From an uncultured delta proteobacterium (GTDB lineage Bacteria > Myxococcota_A > Polyangia > Polyangiales > Polyangiaceae), in the NCBI GenBank assembly GCA_963841435.1, contig CAWJCS010000005.1:1-64000 (forward strand): a stretch of 64,000 nucleotides of DNA, written 5' to 3'. Below the pieces are notes generated by a model. The model made no database searches, was not told where the DNA came from, and was given only the letters and a program-made list of their open reading frames with translations. Shown here one piece after another: positions 14,221 to 30,755 of the stretch; positions within the stretch are counted from its first letter, which is position 1; the number at the start of each line of letters is the position of its first letter. The translations under genes and the position numbers were made by a program.

Positions 14221-16008
14221 TCACTCCCCCGGTGCGGAGTCCATTGCGGCCCGCTCCGGCACGCGGATCTGCACGAGCTTCTCGTCTTGGATGCGGCGCG
14301 CGGTGTCGGCTTCGACGACGTCGCTGTGGCACGCGGCGCGCTCGCCCGTGGAGGCGCCCACGGCGCGCTTCGTTTTGCCGGCCAGGCGGTGGAGCTCGTC
14401 GGGGGAGAGCACGCCGCGTTGCTCGAGGATGCGCTTTTGCTCGGCGCTGAGCGCGGGCGTTTGGTGGGCGGCATCGGGCTCGAAGCCTTCGGCCTTGCCG
14501 CTCGCGAATGCCTGGATTTCGCGCGAGATGCGCACGGCGCACCAGTCGTGGCCGCACATGGCGCAAAAGTCGGTGTCGACGTCGAGGTCTTCGTCGTGGA
14601 AGGCGCGCGCAGTGTCGCCGTCGAAGGCGAGCTCGAAGTGCTTTTCCCAATTGAGCGCGGCGCGCGCCTTCGTGAGGGCGTCGTCCCAGTCGCGCGTCGC
14701 GGGGATGCCGAGCGCCACGTCGGCGGCGTGCGCCGCGATCCGGTACGCGATGCAGCCCTGCTTCACGTCGTCCTTCTTCGGCAGGCCGACGTGCTCCTTC
14801 GGCGTCACGTAGCAGAGCATGCTGGCGCCGTGATAGGCGGCCGCCGTCGCGCCGATGGAGCTCGTGATGTGGTCGTAGCCGGGGAACACGTCGGTCACGA
14901 GCGGACCGAGCACGTAGAAGGGCGCGCCGTGGCAGACGCGGCGCTGGTACTTCATGTTGTATTCGATCTGATCGAACGGGACGTGCCCCGGACCCTCGAC
15001 CATCACTTGACAGCCGTGCTGCCAAGCGCGCTCGGTGAGCTCGCCGAGCGTCTCGAGCTCGCGGAGCTGCGCCTCGTCCGTCGCGTCGGCAAGGCCGCCC
15101 GGACGCAGGCCGTCGCCGAGCGAGAACGACACGTCGTACTCGCGCATGATGGCGCAGATCTCGTCGAAGTGCGTGTAGAAGGGATTTTGCTTTTTGTGGT
15201 GGAGCATCCACTTCGCAATCAATGAGCCTCCGCGGCTCACGATGCCGATCAGGCGCCGTTCGACGAACTTCAGGTGCTCGCGCAAGACGCCGGCGTGGAT
15301 CGTGAAGTAGTCCACGCCTTGCTTGGCCTGGTGCAAGATGGCATCGAGGATGGCGCGCTCGTCGAGGTCTTCGAGACTGCGGCCGATGATCATCGAGTAG
15401 ACGGGCACGGTGCCGATCGGCACGCGCGAGTTTTTCACGATCGCTTCGCGGCAGGCGTCGAGATCACCGCCAGTCGAGAGGTCCATCACGGTGTCGGCGC
15501 CCCAGCGCTCGGCGAACCTGAGCTTCTCGACCTCTTCGTCGGTGCTCGACGACACGGGTGAGGCGCCCATGTTGGCGTTCACCTTGGTGCAACTCGCACG
15601 GCCGATGACCATGGGATCGAGCGCGTAGCCGAGGTGCACCTTGTTCGCGGGCAGGATCATGCGGCCGGCGGCGACCTCGGTCAGCACCTGGTGGGCCGTG
15701 AGGTGCCGCTCGCGCTCGGCGACGCGCCGCATCTCGGGTGTCACGGTCCCGAGGCGCGCGTGCTCGAGCTGCGTTACGGCAACGAAGCCTTCGGGGGGGA
15801 CGCCGCGCGTGCCCTCGCGTCGCCAGCCCGGCGGGAGAAAGTCCCACGCGGTGCGGGTGCTCGGCGCGGGCATGCCGGGAGCGTCGGGTGACGAGAACGT
15901 CAGTGGCCCGCCGATGTCGGGGGGATTGGCAAACGAACCGGGGTTGGTCCCCGAGGCATCGGTCGAGGGGTTCTTCGCGCCGCGCCAGGGCAGGATGCGT
16001 TGGGACAT
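14221..16008 (-). CDS. thiC: Phosphomethylpyrimidine synthase ThiC
   Basis: [64 protein letters not shown] cluster motif; start placed at MSQRILP. Confidence 0.97.
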
Positions 16009-16181
16009 CGGTCCGCCCGTGGTAGCGCACCGGGGCCTCGCCGCGCCAGCGCGACCCGTACGGGCGACCCCCAAGGTCCCGGTTTGTGCCGCTCTGTGCC
16101 GTGCGGCGCGTGCCTGCCCCCTGGGGAAAAGCGCTGATTCCTGCGCGGCCAAACGGGTACGCCCCTTGCCTGTGGAGAGGC

Positions 16182-17933
16182 ATGCCGTTTCGTTTCGAGG
16201 CCCGTGACCACGCCACCGAACGCCTGCGCTGGATGCTGATTGCCGCCATCGGCGGCGCCGCCGTGAGCACCGCGGCTTGCGCAGGAAAATCAGAGGGCAT
16301 CGCCTCGGGCGGCTCGAGCGCCGTCGGGGGGAGCGGCGCGACGGGCGGTACGAGCGCGACGGGCGGCACGAGCGCGACGGGCGGTACGAGCGCGACGGGC
16401 GGCACGAACGCGACGGGCGGCACGAACGCGACGGGCGGCACGGGCGGCAGCGGCGGCACGGGCGCGAGCGGCGGCTCGGGGGGCAGCGGCGGCTCGGGCG
16501 CGAGCGGCGGGACGGCGGGCAGCAGCGGCGGGCTCGGCGGGTCGGGTGGCACCGGCGCGGGCGGCAGTGCCGGGAAGACCGGCGAGGGATGCGCCGCGGC
16601 CGCAGGCTACTCGCCCACGCTCGAGTCGTGCGCAGGCGGCTTCGTGCATCGGCCCGAGCCGGGCCTCTGTCCGCGTCCGCCGCGCAACGGAGAGGCGGGC
16701 GGCGGGGGTGCCCCTTCCGCCGGCTGCGCCACCGACGCCGATTGCATCGCAAAGGACGGTGGCTACTGCATGACCGAACAGGGGGCGGGGCTTTTGGAGC
16801 CGTACGTTTACTGCCTCTACTCGTGCGAGACCGACGCCGATTGCGGCGCCAGCGAGGTCTGCTCCTGCGAGGGGACGTTCCAGAGCAACGAGAGCGGCGA
16901 GCTGGTCACCGTCGGGATTTGTCGCCCCGCGACTTGCCGAAGCGACGCGGACTGTGGCGGCCTTTTGTGCATCTCGCCCGTGGACACGTTCTGCGGCGTC
17001 GCGCGCCCGAGCGAGTATCACTGTCAATCCATCCCGGACCAGTGCGCCGGGCCGGCCGACTGCGCGCTGTCCGAGTACTGCGACTACCGCGACGGGGTTC
17101 ACCAGTGCACGGGGCGGCCAACCTGTGGGCGACCCTTCATCATCGACGGCGACGAGCGGCGCGCACCCCTCGCGTTCGCCGACCGCTGGGCGAAGCGGGA
17201 GCTCGCGCGAGCGAGCGAGCCGCCGGCGCTCGACGAGGCCGAGCGCATGGCGGTGGCGTGCCACTTCGCGGAAGCGGGGCTCATGGAGCACGCGTCGATC
17301 GCCGCGTTCGCGCGCTTCGCGTTGCAGCTCGTCGCGCTCGGCGCGCCCGCCGACCTCCTTGCCGAGACGGCGCGCGCCATGGCGGACGAGACGCGCCACG
17401 CCGAGCTCTGCTTCGCGCTCGCGGAACGCTACGGCGGTCGGCCCGTGGGGCCGGGCCCGCTCGACACGCGCGGCGCACTCGACAACTTCACGCTGAGGGA
17501 CGTCGTCGCGCTCGTCGTGCACGAGGGCTGCATCGGCGAATCGAGTGCGGCGCTCGAGGCTTCGTGGGCGGCAGAAGCGGCGACGGACCCCGCGGTACGA
17601 GCCGCGCTCGAAGGCATCGCCGAGGACGAGGCACGGCACGCGGCGCTCGCGTTCCGCTTCGTCGCCTGGGCGGTGGAGCGCGACGAAGGCGTGCTTTCGC
17701 GGGTGGAGCAGGAGTTCGCGCGGGCGCGGCACCGGCACGAAGGCTTGGCACCCGACAGCGCGGGGCCCGCATCGCCGGCGCTCGCACGACACGGCGTGCT
17801 CGATCTCGCGACGCGCCGCCGGGCACAGCGGACGGCGCTCGAAGAGGTCGTTCCCGCGGCACTCGACGAGCTTCGCGCGAGGCGCTCAGTCCGCGTGAAG
17901 GCCGAGGTCGCCGAGGCAAGCGCGAGCGGCTAG
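16182..17933 (+). CDS. Lipoprotein with Gly tether, Cys-rich region and C-terminal ferritin-like diiron domain
   Basis: Lipobox [28 protein letters not shown] ligand pattern. Confidence 0.85.
16338..16445 (+). repeat. 18-bp coding tandem repeat (ATGGT[S/N])
   Basis: GCGACGGGCGG(T/C)ACGA(G/A)C repeated 5-6 times. Confidence 0.85.
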
Positions 17934-23917: not shown

Positions 23918-25276
23918 ATGTCGAACCTGCCCAAAGTCAATTGGGACATCGATCCCATCTTCTTACCCATCCCCCGCGACATGGTGATCACCATCGCGGG
24001 TGCGATCGCTGCCTACAGCCTGATCCAGGGGATGCGTCGCAAGGGCAGCGACCACTACTCCACCGCGGTGCTCTTCGGAGTGCTCACGTTCGTCGCGTAC
24101 AAGTACATGGGGCCGGCTCTCGAGCTTCGGTACTACAGTCTTCTGTTCGTCGTCGTCTTTCTCGGCGGCTACTCGCTACTGAAATGGCAAGTCGTGCGTG
24201 GCGGGGGAAACGCCGACGACGCGGGCGACTTCATCGTCTACGGCGTGCTGGGGGTGCTCATCGGGGCGCGGCTCGGACACGTTCTCTTCTATGACCTCGA
24301 TAAGGCTTTGCGTGACCCGATCTGGGTGTTCAAGATCTGGACGGGAGGCCTCGCAAGCCACGGGGCGGTGGTCGGGCTCATCACGGTGATGTGGCTGTTC
24401 TGCAAGCAGCGCGGCATCCCTTTTCTCGAGGGCGCCGACCGCTTCTCCTTCTCGGCCACGCTCGGCGCGACGCTCGTGCGCGTCGGTAACCTGATGAATT
24501 CCGAGATCGTCGGCCGAAGGACCGACCAAACCTGGGGCTTCCAGTTCCCGCGCTACGACCACGGTCTCGCCGTCATCCCGTACCGGTACCCCACGCAACT
24601 CGCCGAGATCGCGCTCGGCTGCACCGTGATGGCCGCCCTCTATTTCATCGACAAGCGACTCGGTGAGGAAAAGCGGCCGCGCGGCGCGCTGATTGCGTCT
24701 TTCTTCGCGCTCTACTTCAGCGGCCGCTTCTTCATCGAGTTCTACAAGGAGTACGAGGGACCGGTGACCGAGGGCTCGCCGCTAACGATGGGCCAGATCC
24801 TGAGCCTGCCGGGCATCGTCATCGGCTGGGCGGGACTGTTCTGGGCGCTGAAGAAGAAGGTCCCCGTGGGCTGGCCGTCGCGGGCAACGGACGAGGAAGC
24901 CGACGAGCGCGCCCCGCGCGCGAAGAGCAAGAAGAAGAAGAGGAGGAAGAAGAAGAAGTCCGGCCGGCGCGAGGAAAAGCGGGCCGCGACGAGCGACGAG
25001 CAGGAAGCGTCCGGCGAGGAGGCAACGAGCGACCGAGACGAGGCGTCCGAGGTCGACGAACGCGACGACGGGCACGACGACGACGAGGAAAGCGACGGCG
25101 ACGATCGCAAGGACGACAGCGAAGACGACGACGGCGACGACGATCGCAAGGACGACGAGGACGAGGACGAGGACGAGGATGACGACGAGGCGGAGCCCAC
25201 TTCCCGTCCGCCCCGCGATGCCGACATCGACGACGAGTTCGACGAAAAAGGCACGCTGAAGAAGCGGCGCGACTAG
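23918..25276 (+). CDS. lgt: Prolipoprotein diacylglyceryl transferase with long charged C-terminal tail
   Basis: IGARLGHVLFY, GGLASHG, RVGNLMNSEIVG, PTQLAE, RFFIEF, MGQILS. Confidence 0.93.
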   Translation: MSNLPKVNWDIDPIFLPIPRDMVITIAGAIAAYSLIQGMRRKGSDHYSTAVLFGVLTFVAYKYMGPALELRYYSLLFVVVFLGGYSLLKWQVVRGGGNADDAGDFIVYGVLGVLIGARLGHVLFYDLDKALRDPIWVFKIWTGGLASHGAVVGLITVMWLFCKQRGIPFLEGADRFSFSATLGATLVRVGNLMNSEIVGRRTDQTWGFQFPRYDHGLAVIPYRYPTQLAEIALGCTVMAALYFIDKRLGEEKRPRGALIASFFALYFSGRFFIEFYKEYEGPVTEGSPLTMGQILSLPGIVIGWAGLFWALKKKVPVGWPSRATDEEADERAPRAKSKKKKRRKKKKSGRREEKRAATSDEQEASGEEATSDRDEASEVDERDDGHDDDEESDGDDRKDDSEDDDGDDDRKDDEDEDEDEDDDEAEPTSRPPRDADIDDEFDEKGTLKKRRD

Positions 25277-25320: not shown

Positions 25321-25992
25321 TCAGTCCTTCTTGGTCTTTTTGCCGCCGCGGCGCTTCACGGCGCCACGCACCACGACGAGCCCGCCGCGCGCACCCGGGA
25401 CCCCACCGCCGACGAGCACGAGATTCTGCTCGGGAACGAGCTTCACGACCTTCTGGGTCAGGATGCTGACGGTCTCGTTGCCATAGTGGCCCGGCATCTT
25501 GTGGCCGAGCTTGACGCGACCGGGCGTCATGCGCGTGCCGATGGAGCCACCGTGACGCCGGTACTCGTGCGTGCCGTGCGTCATGCGGTTGCCCTTGAAG
25601 TTGTAGCGACGCATGACGCCGGTGAAGCCGCGCCCGCGCGTGATGCCTTGAACGTCAACGAACTGCCCTTCCTCGAAGAGCTTGTCAACCTCGACCTTCT
25701 GACCTATCTCGATGCCCGCCGCGTACTCCGCGGGGCAACGCAGCTCACGCAGCAACGCAGCCGGCGCTTGCCCGGTCTTCTTGTAGAAACCGGCGAGCGG
25801 CTTGTTGGTGCGCGCCTCGGGACGCTGACCCACGCCGATGACGAGCGCGCTGTAGCCGTCCTTTTCGAGCGTGCGCTTGGCGACGACCGTGCCTTCTGCT
25901 TCGATGACGGTACACGCGGTCACGGTGCCGTCCTCATCGAAAACCTGAGTCATTCCGAGCTTGCGCCCGATCACGCCGGGGTGCTGGTTCAT
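25321..25992 (-). CDS. rplC: 50S ribosomal protein L3
   Basis: GRKLGMTQVF, DGYSAL, VDVQGITRGRGFTG, GSIG..TPGRV, MPGHYG, GGVPG. Confidence 0.97.
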   Translation of the reverse strand: MNQHPGVIGRKLGMTQVFDEDGTVTACTVIEAEGTVVAKRTLEKDGYSALVIGVGQRPEARTNKPLAGFYKKTGQAPAALLRELRCPAEYAAGIEIGQKVEVDKLFEEGQFVDVQGITRGRGFTGVMRRYNFKGNRMTHGTHEYRRHGGSIGTRMTPGRVKLGHKMPGHYGNETVSILTQKVVKLVPEQNLVLVGGGVPGARGGLVVVRGAVKRRGGKKTKKD

Positions 25993-26194
25993 AGGAAGTG
26001 GGCGCTCTTAGCGCCAGGGGCCTCGGAGGTCAAGGCAGCCCCCCGGCGTGGGCCCCTGGAAAAATCGCCGCCCTAGCCCTTATTGGCCGGGGAGAAGCGC
26101 TCGTTGTGGGGGGGAGTCGTACCTCGGCGCGGCGCGCGGACCACCCCGAATACGGGCTACGGCCGGCGCCGCCGAAACTGAAGCAGGAAAAGTC

Positions 26195-28105
26195 ATGCTC
26201 GAGCACTCGAACGTCGCCCGGCTCAGGCCGCGCCTCACCTACCGTGAATTCGGCCTCGAAAAGCTCTACGGGCTCACCGAAGGACTCGGCCTCGCAAAGC
26301 TCTCCGCCCCCGCCCTCACGCTCTTCGACCTCCTAGTCTCGCCCTACGGCGACCTGCCGCTCGGCGGCGAGCCGCTCTGGCCGAGCGACATCACCGACGA
26401 CGGAACGCCATTCGAGCTTTCGGTCGCCTTCAGCCACGGCCGCCCGCTCCTGCGCGTCCTCTCCGAGGCCCAGCGCGCCCCCTTCGACGCCCAGTCCGGC
26501 TGGGAGGCCGCCCTCGCGCTCAACGAGCGGCTCGCTCGCCTGCCCGGCGTCAACCTCGAGCGCTTCGAGCGCGTCGCCCCGATCTTCGCGCCCCGCGCGG
26601 GAGCAACGCCGCGCTTCACCCTCTGGCACGCCGGCACGGTCGAGCCCGATGGGCGCCTGAGCTTCAAGGTCTACCTGAACCCCCGCATCGCCGGCGACGC
26701 GCACGCTCCGGAGCTCGTGCGCGCGGCGCTCGTGGCATGCGGCGCGGCCTATGCGTGGCCACGCCTCGCGGAGCGCCTCACGGCAAACACCGACGTGCTC
26801 TACTTCTCGCTCGATCTCTGCGCGAGCAAGAACGCACGCGTAAAGGTCTACATCGGGCACCGCGGCGCCACCTCGTCGAGCATCGACGCCGAGGTTCGTC
26901 ACGAGCCCGGCTACACGCCGGGGCTCGCCGAGAGCTGGGTCGAGATGCTCACGGGCTCGGAAGGACCGTTCGAAGCGCGGCCGATTCTCACGTGCCACGC
27001 GTTCCGCGGACCCGACCGCGAAGTCGAGGTCACCGTGCACGTTCCGACTCGCTCTTACGTCGACAGCGACGGCGAATCGGCGCTGAGGGCGAGCGAGCTG
27101 CTCGACGCCGTGAGCGCGAAGTCCTTCGTCGGCGGGCTCAAGGCCATGGCGCGCCGGCCCCTCGAGCTGGGGCGGAGCCTGCTCACCTACGTTTCGCTGC
27201 GCCCCGAAGCGGACGGCCCGCGCGTCACCGCGTACCTCGCCCCCGAGGCCTTCGCCATTTCGACGGCTCGGCCCACGGCTCGCCCCACGGCCCACCTCAC
27301 GGAGGCGAGCCCTCAGCCCTTCACGCTGCCGCCCCCGAGTGCGTCCTCGCTCCCGCCGCCCCGCGACACGCTGGTTCGCGCGCTGCGCCACGCGGGCAAA
27401 GCTCCCTCGTGGACGTTCGGAGAGGTCGAGTCGCTGATTTTCGATCAGCGTGACGTCTTCTCGAAGCACCCGTTTCTCAGAAGGCTCGAGGGCTCCGGTC
27501 ACCTCGCAGAGGTGAGCGCCGTCGCGCCACGGCTCACGTTCTTCGTCATGGTGTTCCAGGACATCCTCAGGCTTGCGCGCGCGCTTTCGACGGACCCGGT
27601 GCTCAAGGAGCTCGCCATCAACCACGAGGCGGAGGATCGCGGGCACGACGCGTGGTTCCTCGACGATCTCAAGATCCTCGCGTCGGAGCCCAACGTCACC
27701 TCGCTCTTTTCCGACGACCACGCGCCCACGCGCGACATCGCGTACAAGCTGGTCTCCCTCGTGCTGCGCGCCCAAAACGACGCTACGCGGCTCAGCGTGC
27801 TGCTCGCGCTCGAGGGCGCGGGCGCCGAGTTCTTCGGGCGGATCATCGGGTTCTTGGAGCGGCTCGGACGCACCGAAGGCCTCGCCTACTTCGCGCGCTC
27901 CCACCAGACGGTGGAACAGAACCACGACGTCTTCGGAGAGAGCACGCACGACAGGCTCACCTCGATGCGCATCGAGCCCGCGGCCGTGCCTGAGGTGATC
28001 GAGGCCATCGACGCGACCTTCGCCGCCATGAGTCACCTCGCCAACGTCGCCGAGGAAGCGAGCGCCGCCGCTCTCCACACCCCCGCGAATCGCCTCTCGG
28101 CCTGA
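26195..28105 (+). CDS. DMATS-type aromatic prenyltransferase fused to a heme-oxygenase-like diiron (AetD/BesC-like) domain
   Basis: N-terminal DDGTPFELS, FKVYLNP, YFSLDL, RVKVY, TAYL; Pro-rich linker; C-terminal HxxEDxxH (HEAEDRGH), LALEG, HxxxExxH (HQTVEQNH). Confidence 0.82.
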   Translation: MLEHSNVARLRPRLTYREFGLEKLYGLTEGLGLAKLSAPALTLFDLLVSPYGDLPLGGEPLWPSDITDDGTPFELSVAFSHGRPLLRVLSEAQRAPFDAQSGWEAALALNERLARLPGVNLERFERVAPIFAPRAGATPRFTLWHAGTVEPDGRLSFKVYLNPRIAGDAHAPELVRAALVACGAAYAWPRLAERLTANTDVLYFSLDLCASKNARVKVYIGHRGATSSSIDAEVRHEPGYTPGLAESWVEMLTGSEGPFEARPILTCHAFRGPDREVEVTVHVPTRSYVDSDGESALRASELLDAVSAKSFVGGLKAMARRPLELGRSLLTYVSLRPEADGPRVTAYLAPEAFAISTARPTARPTAHLTEASPQPFTLPPPSASSLPPPRDTLVRALRHAGKAPSWTFGEVESLIFDQRDVFSKHPFLRRLEGSGHLAEVSAVAPRLTFFVMVFQDILRLARALSTDPVLKELAINHEAEDRGHDAWFLDDLKILASEPNVTSLFSDDHAPTRDIAYKLVSLVLRAQNDATRLSVLLALEGAGAEFFGRIIGFLERLGRTEGLAYFARSHQTVEQNHDVFGESTHDRLTSMRIEPAAVPEVIEAIDATFAAMSHLANVAEEASAAALHTPANRLSA

Positions 28106-28119
28106 GGCACGGGCACACG

Positions 28120-29550
28120 ATGACCCCTCCCGACGAAGCTTTCGTCCCCGGACCCGACACCTCGGATGAAGCGCGCGCCGTCGCGAGCCGTGATTTCGGC
28201 GGGCTGTCCCAAGGTCGGACGCGCGAAGTCCTCAAGCCGGGCACGGTCGAGGAGCTCGCACGGGTGGTACGTGCCGCGGCAGGCGATGGCAAGAAGCTCA
28301 CGCCGCGCGGCCGCGGTCTGAGTCAGAGCGGCCAGTCGATCCCGAGGGACGGCTCGAGCCTCGACCTCGGCGATCTGACCGAGCTTGGCACCGTCAACAC
28401 CACGCATCGGCGCGTGTGGGTCGGGCCGGGAGTGACGTTCCGAGGTCTGCTCGCTCACGTGAGCGCGCACGGTCTACGGCCGCCCGTCATGCCGCTGAAC
28501 CTGGACCTCAGCGTGGGCGGCGTGCTCTCCGCCGGCGGCTTCGGGAGCACGAGCTTCTCGCAGGGCGTCGTGGCGTCCCACGTCGCGGCGCTCGACGTCG
28601 TGACGGGGACCGGCGACCTCGTGAGAACGAGCCGCACGGAGCGCCGAGAGGTCTTCGACGCCGTGCTCGGTGGGCTCGGACGTTCGGGCGTCATGGCCCG
28701 CGCAGAGCTCGAGCTGGTGCCGGCGCCTGGAAGAACCCGGATGTACTACCTTTTTTACCAGGAGCTCCCCGTCTTGCTCCGCGACATGGCCGTGCTCGCT
28801 CTGCGCCCGGGGGTGGACCATCTCGAGGGCTTCTGCTCGGCGAGCATCCAGGGCCTCGCGCTCGGACCCAGCGGGCGCCGGGAGCCGCTCGTGCACTGGG
28901 TCTACGGCCTGCACGTGGGCAGCGAGTTCGAGCCGCGCGCGGACCCGCCGGCGGCGAGCCGCCTGCTCGAAGGGCTGAGCTCGCCCCGCCTGCTGAAGGC
29001 CGACGACGACGACACCCGCGCCTTCGCCGCGCGCTACGACCTGCGCTTCGAGATGATGCGGCAGAGCGGCGCTTGGGGCCAGGCGCACCCCTGGCTCGAG
29101 TGTCTCTTGCCGTTCGAGGGAGCGGCGGACGTGATCGCGCAGGCGCTCGCGCTCCTGCCGCCCTTTCTCGGTGATGGTCACCGCTTGTTCCTCGTCGCCG
29201 CGGACGAGCGACCCTATGCGGTGGCCTTCCCGAACGCCGAAAAGGTGCTCGGCTTCGCCGTGCTGCCAGCGGGCGTGCCGGAGCCGCTCTTGCCGGCGGC
29301 GCTCGCCGCGCTTCGGCGCGTCGAGGACCTTTTGCTGCGCGCGGGCGGCAAACGCTACCTTTCCGGCTATCTCGGCGAGATGACGGAAGACCGATGGCGG
29401 GCGCACTACGGCAAGCGCTACGACGAGCTGGTGCGCCGTCAGTCCGCGCTCGACCCGGCGGGTGTGTTCGAATCGTGCCTCGGGGCGCTCGGCACGCCGC
29501 CGGCAAGCGCCGCGCGGGCGCTGCCCGACGCCGTCGCGAAAGCGCGTTGA
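28120..29550 (+). CDS. FAD-binding oxidoreductase, VAO/PCMH family, cytokinin-dehydrogenase-like
   Basis: PRGRGLSQSGQ, LSVGGVLSAGGFG, VVTGTG, LGGLG, HPWL, YL...W..HYG, DPAG. Confidence 0.85.
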   Translation: MTPPDEAFVPGPDTSDEARAVASRDFGGLSQGRTREVLKPGTVEELARVVRAAAGDGKKLTPRGRGLSQSGQSIPRDGSSLDLGDLTELGTVNTTHRRVWVGPGVTFRGLLAHVSAHGLRPPVMPLNLDLSVGGVLSAGGFGSTSFSQGVVASHVAALDVVTGTGDLVRTSRTERREVFDAVLGGLGRSGVMARAELELVPAPGRTRMYYLFYQELPVLLRDMAVLALRPGVDHLEGFCSASIQGLALGPSGRREPLVHWVYGLHVGSEFEPRADPPAASRLLEGLSSPRLLKADDDDTRAFAARYDLRFEMMRQSGAWGQAHPWLECLLPFEGAADVIAQALALLPPFLGDGHRLFLVAADERPYAVAFPNAEKVLGFAVLPAGVPEPLLPAALAALRRVEDLLLRAGGKRYLSGYLGEMTEDRWRAHYGKRYDELVRRQSALDPAGVFESCLGALGTPPASAARALPDAVAKAR

Positions 29551-29567: not shown

Positions 29568-30726
29568 TCAGAGCTCGCCACGCAGGGCCTGCTCGACGAG
29601 CTCCGCCGTCGCACGACCGGACGTCACCGCATCGTCGAGCCCGTACCCCCACCCCGGCGGCGGGGCGAGGTAGTCGCCCGCGAGGAAGAGGCGCCGCGTG
29701 GCGCGTGACGACGCGTCCCGCTTGAGCCTCTGGTAGTCGGCGCCGAGCACGGTGCCCGACAGGGCCCAGCGCTTCACGTGGGAGGTCGCCATCGTGACGT
29801 CGAGGCCCGAGACGCCGAGACGCGCGACGCCCCGCCGCGCGCTTTCGACGAGGGCCCGATCGTCGAGAGCGTCAGCGTGACGGACGCATGCATCCTCGGC
29901 AAAGTAGACGTAAAACACGTGGCGTCGCCGATCGACGCTCGCCTGGTGCATCACGAGCGACAGCTCGAGATCGGGCGTGACGACGAAGCGGAAATCCGGC
30001 TCGAGCGTCGCGCCCTCGAGCTCGAACGCCACCACGGTGTAGCGCGCGTAGCGCACCGATTCGAGGAAAGCACCGACGGCCGGCGCCGGGTGCTCGACGA
30101 GCGCGCGCGCCGCCGTTGCCGGCGTTGCAACGATGACCACCCGCGCCGCGAGCTCGGCCTGGGCGCCGCTGGTCGCTCGAACGAAGATCTTCACGTCGTT
30201 CTCGCTCTCGACGAGGCGCACGACGGAGGTGCCGAGCGCGAGCTCGGCGGAGACCGCCCCCTCGAGCCGCTCGACGAGCCCCACGTTCCCACCCTCGTAG
30301 TGGTCCGGGTACCAGTTGACGACGGCGTCGTTCTGCCGGGTCGGTGCGTACTCCTCTGGGCTGCCCGGGTGGATCTCGATGGAACAGCTCGGGCAGCGTG
30401 CGCGACGCCTCGTCGTCCGTCAGCTGCGCGAGGAGCTCGCGGGCCGTGGGAGCGACGACGAGCTTTTCGCCGACGAGCGCAGCGACGGGAAAGCGCTCCT
30501 TTATCAAGGCTCCGGGAGGGGGGGCGCCCGGCGGGGCGAGGCTCGGACGGTAAGCAAAACAGGCCCCCAAATCGATGCTCGCGCCGGCGCGAGCCAGCGT
30601 GGCGACGCGCCCCCCGACGCGAGCCTCGCTCTCGACGATGAGGACATGGCGTCCGGCGAGCCCGGAAGCCGCCGACAGGCCCGCGACGCCCGCGCCGATC
30701 ACCACCACGTCGTGAGCCTCGGTCAC
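29568..30726 (-). CDS. Flavin-dependent amine-oxidase/protoporphyrinogen-oxidase-like oxidoreductase; frameshift near 30377
   Basis: VVVIGAGVAGL, VGGRV, LFLAGDY, AVTSG; the halves join by removing one base (LFH-QIHPGS). Confidence 0.75.
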
Positions 30727-30755
30727 CGGGCGCCGCATACCACGACCTCGACCCC

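Follow-up and report, generated by a model that had tools for sequence, protein, structure and literature searches.

Which product is made by an enzyme that carries an aromatic prenyltransferase and a putative diiron oxidase on one polypeptide? This question is raised by a gene in the 64,000-nucleotide stretch of DNA analysed here (the window), which stems from an uncultured soil myxobacterium. An initial annotation had read the gene as a DMATS prenyltransferase fused to an AetD/BesC-like diiron enzyme that would prenylate tryptophan and then oxidatively truncate its side chain. We have followed up this proposal by analysing the two domains, their relatives and the genes that accompany them.

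A single gene with two domains and a disordered tether

The gene is a single open reading frame of 636 codons, as initially annotated (Table 1). Upstream of its ATG, a GTG at position 26048 provides an open, longer alternative start; 15 aligned relatives start at or near the Met residue equivalent to the ATG. The prenyltransferase part had been drawn up to about position 27260 and was said to be followed by a Pro-rich linker. This boundary corresponds to residue 355, and the 48 residues from 356 to 403 comprise 10 Pro, 8 Ala and 6 Thr. The linker has pLDDT values below 50 in the full-length AF2 model, as expected of a disordered segment, and both its length and its sequence differ between aligned relatives. 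Given this disorder and a pTM of 0.64 for the full-length model, nothing in the prediction points to a fixed channel linking the active sites of the two domains.

Table 1. Features of the fusion gene and its surroundings, with positions in the window.
Feature	Position	Strand	Basis
Ribosomal protein L3 gene (rplC)	25321..25992	-	PF00297
Shine-Dalgarno-like AGGA	26185..26188	+	Five bases 5' of ATG; read directly from sequence
DMATS-HDO fusion gene	26195..28105	+	636 aa + stop; ATG 26195, stop 28105
DMATS-type aromatic prenyltransferase domain (residues ~12-355), 10-strand PT-barrel	26228..27259	+	PF11991, PDB 6zry, AF2
Flexible Pro/Ala/Thr-rich linker (residues 356-403)	27260..27403	+	Composition; pLDDT < 50
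AetD-like heme-oxygenase-like diiron oxidase (HDO) domain (residues ~404-631)	27404..28087	+	AetD E 1e-6; AF2; Foldseek
F450, F454 (AetD F44, F48, stack on substrate indole)	27542..27556	+	Alignment
Core helix 1 ligands D481, H484 (AetD D76, H79)	27635..27646	+	Alignment
Core helix 2 ligand E540 (AetD E140)	27812..27814	+	Alignment
Y565 (AetD Y167, substrate carboxylate) and core helix 3 H570-x3-E574-x2-H577 (AetD H172, E176, H179)	27887..27925	+	Alignment
Cytokinin-oxidase-like (CKX-like) FAD oxidase, 476 aa	28120..29550	+	FAD_binding_4, Cytokin-bind, plant CKX match
Flavin amine-oxidase-like gene, convergent, two frames meeting ~30380-30382	29568..30738	-	Two-frame reading

Two separate genes might have been merged artificially, either by a sequencing error within the linker or by gene calling. 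The nearby amine-oxidase-like gene spans two frames, so that indel errors in the assembly are possible, and the single DNA run found shared only 0.06 of the sampled words, with no RNA run listed. Nevertheless, 90 independent proteins of about 600-640 aa from JGI, ENA, NCBI and Logan have the same architecture, and the frames are unbroken, with no internal stops, in the genomes of eight relatives. An artefact is thus extremely improbable.

The N-terminal prenyltransferase domain

The fusion protein is recognized by the Pfam profile Trp_DMAT (PF11991) with an E value of 1e-12 (48.5 bits, for a cut-off of 25), and nine distinct solved DMATS sequences match residues 44-365 in a PDB search, with E values from 5.6e-37 for 6zry to 6e-24. 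The NCBIfam model of a DMATS subfamily, TIGR03429, scores 93.1 bits, under its cut-off of 163.85. Judging from its sequence, the domain is a divergent branch of the DMATS family, and as it remains below that cut-off, its aromatic substrate could be other than Trp. Ten strands in five pairs, with helices between them, make up the PT-barrel pattern in the full-length AF2 model, where the pLDDT of this block is mostly above 90.

Residues E74 (in a TPFE motif), R87, Y160, R215, K217 and Y219 are invariant in 30 fusions, and K158 is nearly so. E74 aligns to a Glu residue in 6zry. In FgaPT2, the indole N-H is bound by the catalytic residue E89, and the diphosphate by R100, K187, Y189, R257, K259 and Y261; their respective candidate counterparts here would be E74, R87, K158, Y160, R215, K217 and Y219. 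Homology, the Trp_DMAT domain and the barrel strands are thus common to our protein and to the bacterial DMATS Trp prenyltransferases of known structure (6ZRX, 6ZRY, 6ZRZ, 6ZS0, the 6-DMATS 7W8U, PriB 5INJ and CymD 6OS3). Unlike the fusion, the latter consist of one domain only, with a length of about 360-400 aa, and most of them are actinobacterial.

The C-terminal domain is related to AetD

The motifs quoted in the initial annotation are all present in the helical domain, with HEAEDRGHDAWFLDDL at residues 477-492, LALEGAG at 537-543 and YFARSHQTVEQNH at 565-577. Among solved families, only AetD matches this domain below an E value of 1e-4, with 20-22% identity. The E value is 4e-6 if the complete protein serves as query and 1e-6 for the isolated domain, which matched no other natural protein of solved structure. 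The Pfam profile Haem_oxygenas_2 (PF14518) gives 26.2 bits (E 7.8e-6), under its gathering cut-off of 28.9. Some relatives pass this profile according to precomputed annotation, and it seems to cover the AetD-like clade poorly.

Profile and Foldseek searches had been put forward as a check of the initial annotation, which would have been abandoned for want of a heme-oxygenase-like fold. This fold was found, with PF14518 itself remaining subthreshold. The AF2 model of residues 395-636 (pLDDT 91.2, pTM 0.88) is all helical, and the comparison with the PDB assigns it the seven-helix heme-oxygenase-like fold. AetD structures occupy ranks 1 to 20 (8tww_A, E 5.7e-7, TM 0.78), followed by CADD, BesC and UndA. 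The proposed resemblance to AetD is therefore borne out by sequence, by fold and by a ligand-by-ligand alignment. The BesC half of the 'AetD/BesC-like' label fares less well, since BesC, which fragments 4-chloro-lysine, shares the superfamily fold but shows no sequence-level match, and even its structural resemblance is remote (Foldseek rank 26, TM 0.65, 14% identity).

The 3-His/3-carboxylate ligand set of AetD is complete in the domain, with all six positions aligned, and the three residues that contact the substrate in AetD have their equivalents as well (Table 1). The roles of these residues were described in the AetD preprint. All six ligands are invariant in 21 C-terminal domains and in 30 fusions. 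In the 226 domains with full coverage that were scored, the position of AetD residue 44 is occupied by Phe, Trp or Tyr in 210 cases, and that of residue 48 by Phe in 211. The N-oxygenases SznF and RohS have a fourth carboxylate ligand where AetD has a Phe. The presence of a Phe (F454) at this position in the window's domain, as in AetD, suggests that Fe1 would be free to chelate the substrate.

AetD (8TWW, 8JI2) thus has in common with our domain the iron ligands, the Tyr residue that holds the carboxylate and the two Phe residues that stack on the indole. It differs in being a stand-alone, cyanobacterial protein of 240 aa that receives its substrate from a halogenase, whereas the window's HDO is found in Myxococcota, fused to a prenyltransferase. 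S214 of AetD, which contacts bromine, cannot be aligned to the window's C-terminal domain.

The two characterized members of the clade are AetD and its homologue SktA from Nostoc punctiforme. Both act on a ring-substituted L-Trp supplied by a neighbouring ring-decorating enzyme, and both cleave between C-alpha and C-beta. AetD is the nitrile synthase of the aetokthonotoxin pathway, in which the aldehyde is a shunt product, while SktA turns nearly the same substrate into skatole (3-methylindole), cyanide and bicarbonate. As the two enzymes have the same ligands and almost the same substrate but yield unlike products, homology leaves the outcome of the reaction unfixed. We looked at second-shell positions 139 and 142, chosen from a review that marks the differences between AetD and SktA. 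They are Met and Ala in AetD, Thr and Thr in SktA, and Leu and Ala (L539 and A542) in the window's domain, which at the sequence level would lean weakly towards the AetD outcome.

The fusion is recurrent in Myxococcota

A search with the whole protein yielded 159 relatives at E<=0.001, and the profile of the C-terminal domain matched 704 cluster representatives. The fusion is real and recurrent, with 90 DMATS-HDO proteins among the 403 that were fetched. Other architectures in this set are HDO-DMATS (7 proteins), HDO-CKX (6), CKX-DMATS-HDO (5), DMATS-HDO-CKX (1) and CKX-DMATS (1), so that a CKX-like domain is fused to DMATS and/or HDO in 13 proteins, in several orders. All 90 DMATS-HDO proteins come from Myxococcota MAGs and metagenomes, and the relatives searched did not include a cultured organism with a DMATS-HDO protein of the AetD type. 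The clusters of 10 relatives carried MAG labels only, and a scan of named genomes yielded three loci, all from MAGs. Hyalangium versicolor has a 607-aa protein in the opposite order, with a C-terminal DMATS part and an N-terminal part that a profile identifies as HDO-like; the latter is unseen by Pfam and differs at three of the six ligand positions.

In a FastTree phylogeny of 218 HDO domains, architectures are clustered and at least 13 changes between them are forced. Since many of the apparently stand-alone entries are fragments of short contigs, we do not infer from this tree how many times fusion has occurred. Where the relatives carry names in their sources, these are 'tryptophan dimethylallyltransferase family protein', 'DMATS type aromatic prenyltransferase' or 'hypothetical protein'. 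With such names and a C-terminal domain that Pfam misses in the window's protein, the second activity is easily overlooked in routine annotation. The initial annotation had also regarded the fusion as undescribed, and our literature search found no account of a DMATS-HDO combination. Neither did we find a description of DMATS, HDO and CKX-like enzymes together in the library of papers that was searched.

The HDO ligands are intact in 77 of the 90 DMATS-HDO proteins, degenerate in 10 and partial in 3. The window's protein has the full set, whereas about a tenth of the fusions, a point missed in the initial annotation, have lost the iron ligands of the C-terminal domain.

A flavoprotein is the third conserved partner

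The gene for a FAD oxidase starts after a gap of 14 bases downstream of the fusion gene, and the two probably form one operon. Its product matches the Pfam profiles FAD_binding_4 (E 5e-26) and Cytokin-bind (E 5e-7), both over their cut-offs, and the plant CKX 6c80 matches it over residues 16-450 (E 4e-34). Full-length homology and the two CKX Pfam domains thus relate this protein to plant CKX enzymes (6C80, 2EXR, 1W1O). In contrast to these, it is bacterial and tied or fused to DMATS and HDO partners, with no adenine-type substrate in view, and cytokinin activity is not expected. CKX-like proteins also have cyanobacterial neighbours, from Acaryochloris. CKX enzymes oxidize the carbon adjoining the isopentenyl double bond. 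A CKX-like gene is found beside the module in 16 of the 17 loci examined; as these loci were picked by their similarity to the query, only this co-occurrence counts as an independent observation, and the genomes are kin. The CKX-like flavoprotein is therefore a third conserved partner, which was absent from the initial annotation.

Two other neighbours do not appear to contribute. The flavin amine-oxidase-like gene is probably not part of the module, as it reads in two frames and is absent at the syntenic locus L001, where a Metallophos gene directly follows the FAD oxidase gene. We also considered the L3 gene as a duplicated self-resistance target. It represents the sole PF00297 match in a 95%-complete genome, which identifies it as the housekeeping rplC.

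Some loci depart from the common organization. In L002 and L003, genes for HDO and CKX-like proteins are accompanied by one for a 335-aa protein, and a DMATS gene is absent nearby. We considered this 335-aa protein as a hidden prenyltransferase, but it has no similarity to the DMATS domain, no PDB or Pfam match and no Atlas lead. The HDO/CKX pair thus appears to be independent of a prenyl group in some lineages, and this makes the prenyl chain a less convincing target of the flavoprotein. At L012 and L013, the degenerate HDO of the fusion is complemented by a separate HDO gene with intact ligands, located after the CKX-like gene. Lastly, the fused HDO of L015 has lost its ligands, and a gene of the tryptophanase family (NF009709, 563 bits for a cut-off of 285) lies in the place of the stand-alone HDO gene; profile searches detected no other HDO of the AetD-like type in that genome. 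The replacement of an HDO by a tryptophanase-family protein fits with a role of the HDO in side-chain removal. Nevertheless, this is a single locus, and the gene may be an unrelated housekeeping one.

These variants bear on whether the C-terminal domain is catalytic at all. It might be a helical appendage with a structural or regulatory role, the prenyltransferase alone being active, as inactive versions do persist, both among the degenerate fusions counted above and in L012, L013 and L015. However, the window's domain keeps the six ligands and the three substrate contacts, most fusions are likewise intact, and the stand-alone HDO next to each degenerate copy in L012 and L013 argues that the activity is needed. 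We therefore regard a non-catalytic appendage as very unlikely.

A proposed pathway to prenylated indoles

The analysis establishes which domains are present and what fold the HDO has, that its ligands are complete, that the tether is disordered and that the three activities are recurrently linked or fused; the chemistry can be inferred from this. We lean, with some reserve, towards a three-activity module in which the fusion protein and the adjoining flavoprotein convert L-Trp to a prenylated indole with a truncated side chain, probably one that is undescribed. By homology, the DMATS domain would first transfer the dimethylallyl group from DMAPP onto the indole ring of L-Trp. The tethered HDO would then bind the resulting prenyl-Trp by its amino-acid end at Fe1, with a substrate-triggered diiron centre as in AetD. 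Scission between C-alpha and C-beta, driven by O2, would leave the beta carbon attached to C3, in the form of a nitrile, aldehyde or methyl substituent; an AetD-like nitrile or aldehyde is slightly favoured over the methyl. The third step is the least certain. Oxidation of the product by the CKX-like FAD enzyme might yield a diene or an alcohol, if it takes place at C1' of the prenyl group, or might affect the C3 substituent instead. Such a succession recalls the published gene logic of SktA, with a ring-decorating enzyme (SktB), an HDO (SktA) and a flavoenzyme (SktC). The latter was called a flavin monooxygenase in the SktA paper and was not obtained in soluble form.

The first two steps could conceivably take place in the reverse order, the HDO turning free L-Trp into indole-3-carbonitrile, indole-3-carbaldehyde or skatole before prenylation by the DMATS domain. 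The architecture has no say in the matter, because the order of the domains varies between proteins, and the loci without a DMATS gene indicate that unprenylated substrates are taken in some lineages. Furthermore, AetD was crystallized with plain L-Trp, according to the titles of PDB entries 8ji6 and 8ji7, and skatole co-purifies with SktA. Conversely, depositors have named the closest solved DMATS relatives tryptophan or dimethylallyltryptophan synthases, and decoration of the ring precedes the HDO step in both characterized pathways. We consider the reverse order unlikely.

Alternatively, the HDO might oxidize prenyl-Trp and keep the amino acid, for instance by N-oxygenation, hydroxylation or desaturation, to yield a modified amino acid. 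Members of the HDO superfamily with similar ligands catalyse reactions as varied as N-oxygenation, desaturation and C-C cleavage, HrmI is an N-oxygenase with a 3-His/3-carboxylate set, and the identity with AetD is low. Nevertheless, AetD is far closer to the domain than any other solved relative, the equivalents of its substrate-holding residues Y167, F44 and F48 are retained, and in L015 it is a tryptophanase-family gene that replaces the HDO. An oxidation of this kind thus seems rather unlikely to us, and side-chain truncation of prenyl-Trp remains our preferred reading.

Possible link with indiacens and implications

To our knowledge, no prenylated indoles other than the indiacens have been reported from myxobacteria. 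Indiacens A and B are produced by the myxobacterium Sandaracinus, and their benzene ring bears a C5 chain that is oxidized to a dienyl group. Indiacen B was synthesized from 4-iodoindole with nothing added at C3, and the synthesis paper thereby rules out that indiacens are indole-3-carbaldehydes. The lack of a C3 substituent in indiacen B implies that all three carbons of the side chain have been lost, unlike in the products of AetD and SktA. A DMATS enzyme and a flavoprotein that oxidizes the prenyl group could be the source of the dienyl chain. We found no biosynthetic gene cluster for indiacens in the literature searched.

It is tempting to go further and to view the DMATS/HDO/CKX-like triad as a widespread, unnoticed pathway of uncultured Polyangia, in which O2 and iron take the place of a PLP-dependent tryptophanase in removing the side chain of tryptophan. 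Its products would be a new class of prenyl-indole-3-carbonitriles or, with the flavoprotein, dienyl-indoles of the indiacen type with a free C3. We hold this broader scenario to be doubtful. If the indiacen-type case were true, this HDO clade, acting by itself or together with the CKX-like flavoprotein, would remove all three side-chain carbons, which would be new for diiron oxidases, and the genetic basis of the only known myxobacterial prenyl indoles would be identified.

The DMATS-HDO fusion is a good lead for genome mining. The varied orders in which CKX-like domains are fused point to a compact pathway of two or three genes, and its heterologous expression from synthetic genes could give access to metabolites of uncultured myxobacteria. 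Moreover, the fusion indicates what its HDO probably acts on, namely prenyl-Trp, which is rarely possible with orphan HDOs. As a third branch of the AetD clade, tethered to the enzyme that would make its substrate, it represents a natural experiment on how the outcome of the reaction is controlled.

A prenyltransferase fused to an AetD-like diiron oxidase

In this G+C-rich window (~69%), the open reading frame singled out in the initial annotation is confirmed. It encodes a protein with an N-terminal tryptophan-type aromatic prenyltransferase (DMATS) domain, a linker and a C-terminal heme-oxygenase-like diiron oxidase (HDO) domain. Its frame stays open upstream to a GTG at 26048. We nevertheless take the ATG at 26195 as the start, since 15 aligned relatives start at this position or close to it and an AGGA lies five bases 5' of it.

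The DMATS identity of the N-domain is borne out by Pfam Trp_DMAT, which matches residues 41-230 above its cut-off (E 1e-12), and by nine distinct solved bacterial DMATS-type prenyltransferases, which match residues 44-365 in a search of all PDB sequences (E 5.6e-37 to 6e-24); an NCBIfam DMATS subfamily model matches below its cut-off. In a full-length model (30 sequences, pLDDT 87.4), the N-domain is predicted to form ten strands in five pairs with helices between, which is the pattern of the prenyltransferase barrel, and the C-domain is helical. The segment previously described as a Pro-rich linker corresponds to residues 356-403 (48 residues), whose composition (10 Pro, 8 Ala and 6 Thr) and pLDDT under 50 indicate a flexible tether. 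The relative placement of the two domains is not confident in this model (pTM 0.64).

The C-domain had been likened to both AetD and BesC. The AetD half of this analogy holds for sequence and fold; the BesC half was overstated. Residues 411-601 match AetD in the PDB (E 4e-6 with the whole protein as query, about 1e-6 with the domain alone), with no other notable match in that search, and Pfam Haem_oxygenas_2 matches residues 450-589 slightly below its cut-off (E 7.8e-6, 26.2 bits against 28.9). An AlphaFold2 model of residues 395-636 (21 sequences) is all helical (pLDDT 91.2, pTM 0.88) and has the heme-oxygenase-like fold: AetD chains occupy ranks 1-20 in a Foldseek search of the PDB (best E 5.7e-7, TM 0.78), followed with far weaker scores by CADD, BesC, TenA-like proteins and UndA.

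The three motifs quoted initially for this domain are found at residues 477-492, 537-543 and 565-577. According to the AetD preprint, the iron ligands are D76 and H79 of core helix 1, E140 of core helix 2, and H172, E176 and H179 of core helix 3. The HMMER alignment, whose AetD chain numbers exceed the native ones by 10, pairs these six with D481, H484, E540, H570, E574 and H577 of the fusion protein, all of them invariant among 21 aligned C-domains and 30 full-length fusions. The preprint also describes a hydrogen bond of Y167 to the substrate carboxylate and stacking of F44 and F48 on the substrate. Where the N-oxygenases SznF and RohS have a fourth carboxylate ligand, AetD has F48, so that Fe1 is left free to chelate the amino-acid end. 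The equivalents of Y167, F44 and F48 in the fusion protein are Y565, F450 and F454. We are highly confident that the protein genuinely fuses two enzymes and that its diiron site is intact.

Features of the window and of compared loci (L numbers)
Feature	Locus	Coordinates	Strand	Remarks
DMATS-HDO fusion ORF	window	26195-28105	+	636 aa; ATG to stop
CKX-like flavoprotein gene	window	28120-29550	+	476 aa; starts 14 bases after fusion stop
Flavin amine-oxidase/CrtI-like gene	window	29568-30738	-	convergent with FAD oxidase gene
Ribosomal protein L3 gene	window	25321-25992	-	solitary, between lgt and DMATS-HDO gene
Lgt gene	window	23918-25276	+	extremely charged C-terminal tail of ~140 residues
ThiC ORF	window	14221-16752	-	842 aa; ThiC domain on residues 326-743 only
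Tryptophanase-family gene	L015	4399-5802	+	NCBIfam NF009709, 563 bits (cut-off 285); adjoins CKX-like gene
Gene for 335-aa protein	L002	8851-9858	+	Cys-rich C-terminus
Gene for 335-aa protein	L003	3730-4740	+	Cys-rich C-terminus
Second-kind DMATS fusion	L021	6219-8063	-	
Second-kind DMATS fusion	L022	7227-9068	+	
Second-kind DMATS fusion	L023	6913-8763	+	
Second AetD-like protein	L026	5038-6756	-	571 aa; same genome as window (G000:C6, about 1363037-1364755)

A recurrent architecture with a flavoprotein partner

The whole fusion protein has 159 relatives at E<=0.001. Of the 70 highest-ranking among the best 120, the majority span 580-665 aa, with query coverage of 88-99% and identity of 34-58%. 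Their sources are JGI, ENA, NCBI and Logan assemblies; the few for which a name is given belong to Polyangiaceae or Myxococcota MAGs. With a C-domain profile, 704 cluster representatives are retrieved at E<=0.001, of which 214 remain at E<=1e-30. The survey across genomes proposed in the initial annotation bears out the fusion, since scanning 403 fetched proteins with our own profiles assigned 90 to DMATS-HDO. Single domains account for 129 (HDO, fragments among them), 117 (cytokinin oxidase/dehydrogenase (CKX)-like) and 47 (DMATS), and the other composites are HDO-DMATS (7), HDO-CKX (6), CKX-DMATS-HDO (5), DMATS-HDO-CKX (1) and CKX-DMATS (1). Pfam corroborated the composite architectures of the proteins submitted to it; the fusion is thus a real, recurrent gene form.

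The initial interpretation was incomplete in that it missed the flavoprotein encoded immediately downstream. This protein carries Pfam FAD_binding_4 and Cytokin-bind; among solved proteins, plant cytokinin oxidases are related to it most closely (E 4e-34, full length). The comparison covered 17 distinct loci, namely the window, three MAG loci that carry names and thirteen stretches from genomes of relatives. Sixteen of these contain a CKX-like gene, which mostly adjoins the rest of the module; the sole exception is L014. As the loci were chosen by likeness to the DMATS-HDO query, this co-occurrence is the only independent observation they offer, and the genomes are kin. Even so, together with the fusion proteins, it is the classic signature of one shared pathway. 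No further conserved gene surrounds the module among the compared loci (in the window, its neighbours are housekeeping genes, with lgt and rplC upstream, and a phosphoesterase gene, a PAP2 protein gene and dapB/dapA downstream), and the pathway seems to consist of the fusion gene and the CKX-like gene only. Relatives of the flavoprotein, at 44-45% identity, also occur in Acaryochloris and a Thermosynechococcaceae MAG; these are cyanobacteria, the phylum from which AetD and the related enzyme SktA come.

Several other genes of the window have features of their own. The amine-oxidase/CrtI-like gene is legible only in two frames, with its N-terminal FAD-binding part and its C-terminal part in different frames and a junction at about 30380-30382; it is either a pseudogene or the result of an assembly indel error, and it is missing from the syntenic locus L001. 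The L3 gene lies outside any ribosomal-protein operon in view, is the sole PF00297 match in this 95%-complete genome, and is arranged in the same way in L024. In the Lgt tail, a run of lysine and arginine precedes long stretches of Asp and Glu. The ThiC ORF either has a long N-terminal extension or truly starts far downstream of its first start codon.

Variant loci

Among the 90 DMATS-HDO proteins, the iron ligands are lost in 10 and partial in 3. L012 and L013 combine a degenerate fused C-domain with an intact stand-alone HDO, which is encoded after the CKX gene. The fused HDO domain of L015 is likewise degenerate, its ligands lost, and a tryptophanase-family gene occupies the place corresponding to that stand-alone HDO; a profile search of this genome (96% complete) found no other AetD-type HDO. 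Tryptophanase removes the side chain of tryptophan, so this arrangement fits a side-chain-removing role for the HDO, and PLP-dependent cleavage may replace oxidative cleavage in L015. It is a single case, and the gene could be unrelated.

In the L002 and L003 MAGs, stand-alone HDO and CKX genes are preceded by the gene for a conserved Cys-rich protein (50% identity between the two) rather than by a DMATS gene. This protein has no match in Pfam, the PDB or the Atlas and does not resemble DMATS; in these lineages, its role may be to supply the substrate or to decorate it. The HDO/CKX pair thus does not always need an adjoining prenyltransferase.

In L021-L023, a CKX-like gene adjoins a DMATS fusion of a second kind, whose C-terminal heme-oxygenase-like domain passes Pfam PF14518 (Haem_oxygenas_2, E about 1e-15) but fails the AetD-type profile. 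Inspection by eye shows an H-x3-E-x2-H motif in this domain, with E and H residues upstream. The combination of DMATS and HDO therefore exists in at least two forms. A class-V aminotransferase/kynureninase-like gene lies downstream of the fusion in L022.

The second AetD-like protein of the window's genome resembles two tandem HDO-like halves. It matches AetD in the PDB over residues 39-268 (E 4.9e-12) and has no Pfam match; by eye, ED..H and H-x3-E-x2-H are present in the first half and both are absent from the second. A gene for a PETase-like hydrolase adjoins it.

Proposed pathway

AetD is described as converting 5,7-dibromo-L-Trp to an indole-3-carbonitrile and glycolate, with the 3-carbaldehyde, glyoxylate and ammonia as shunt products, and SktA as converting 5-bromo-L-Trp to 5-bromoskatole, cyanide and bicarbonate. 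Both reactions break the bond to the alpha carbon and keep the beta carbon on the ring, which a neighbouring enzyme has decorated first. By analogy, the N-domain would prenylate L-Trp with DMAPP, the tethered diiron domain would cleave the C-alpha/C-beta bond with O2, and the flavoprotein would oxidise the product further. For the parts, the initial interpretation is supported, and the function it proposed is plausible; we lean towards prenylation of Trp followed by side-chain truncation. That the product is specifically a nitrile appears rather unlikely. A review singles out positions 139 and 142 as different between AetD (M and A) and SktA (T and T); the fusion protein has L and A, which leans faintly to the AetD side. 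Product identity is not readable from sequence.

Two roles are plausible for the flavoprotein. It might abstract a hydride from the prenyl group at C1', a reaction that CKX carries out beside an isopentenyl double bond and that has been proposed for the FAD-linked EasE acting on dimethylallyl-Trp in the ergot pathway; L018 and L021-L023, which have DMATS and CKX and no AetD-type HDO, favour this role. Alternatively, it might oxidise a 3-methyl or 3-hydroxymethyl group, for which p-cresol methylhydroxylase is a model, and the DMATS-less loci speak somewhat for this second role.

The only myxobacterial prenyl indoles known to us are the indiacens, which come from Sandaracinus. They are described as carrying a dienyl C5 chain at C4 and no substituent at C3, so that an AetD- or SktA-type product would not be an indiacen unless one further carbon were lost. 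A link to indiacens is therefore a bold reading and not the best one.

The initial annotation knew of no described fusion of these families. In a full-text search of non-subscription papers, none was found that links a prenyltransferase to an HDO, AetD-type or other, or to a CKX-like flavoprotein, nor any on how indiacens are made. The words 'prenyl', 'fusion' and 'fused' are absent from the main text of the 2026 HDO mini-review and of the SktA paper. The families of the two domains and of the flavoprotein are already known; what is new is the fixed association and fusion of DMATS, HDO and CKX-like flavoprotein, which also implies that the AetD/SktA clade of HDOs has a new class of substrate.
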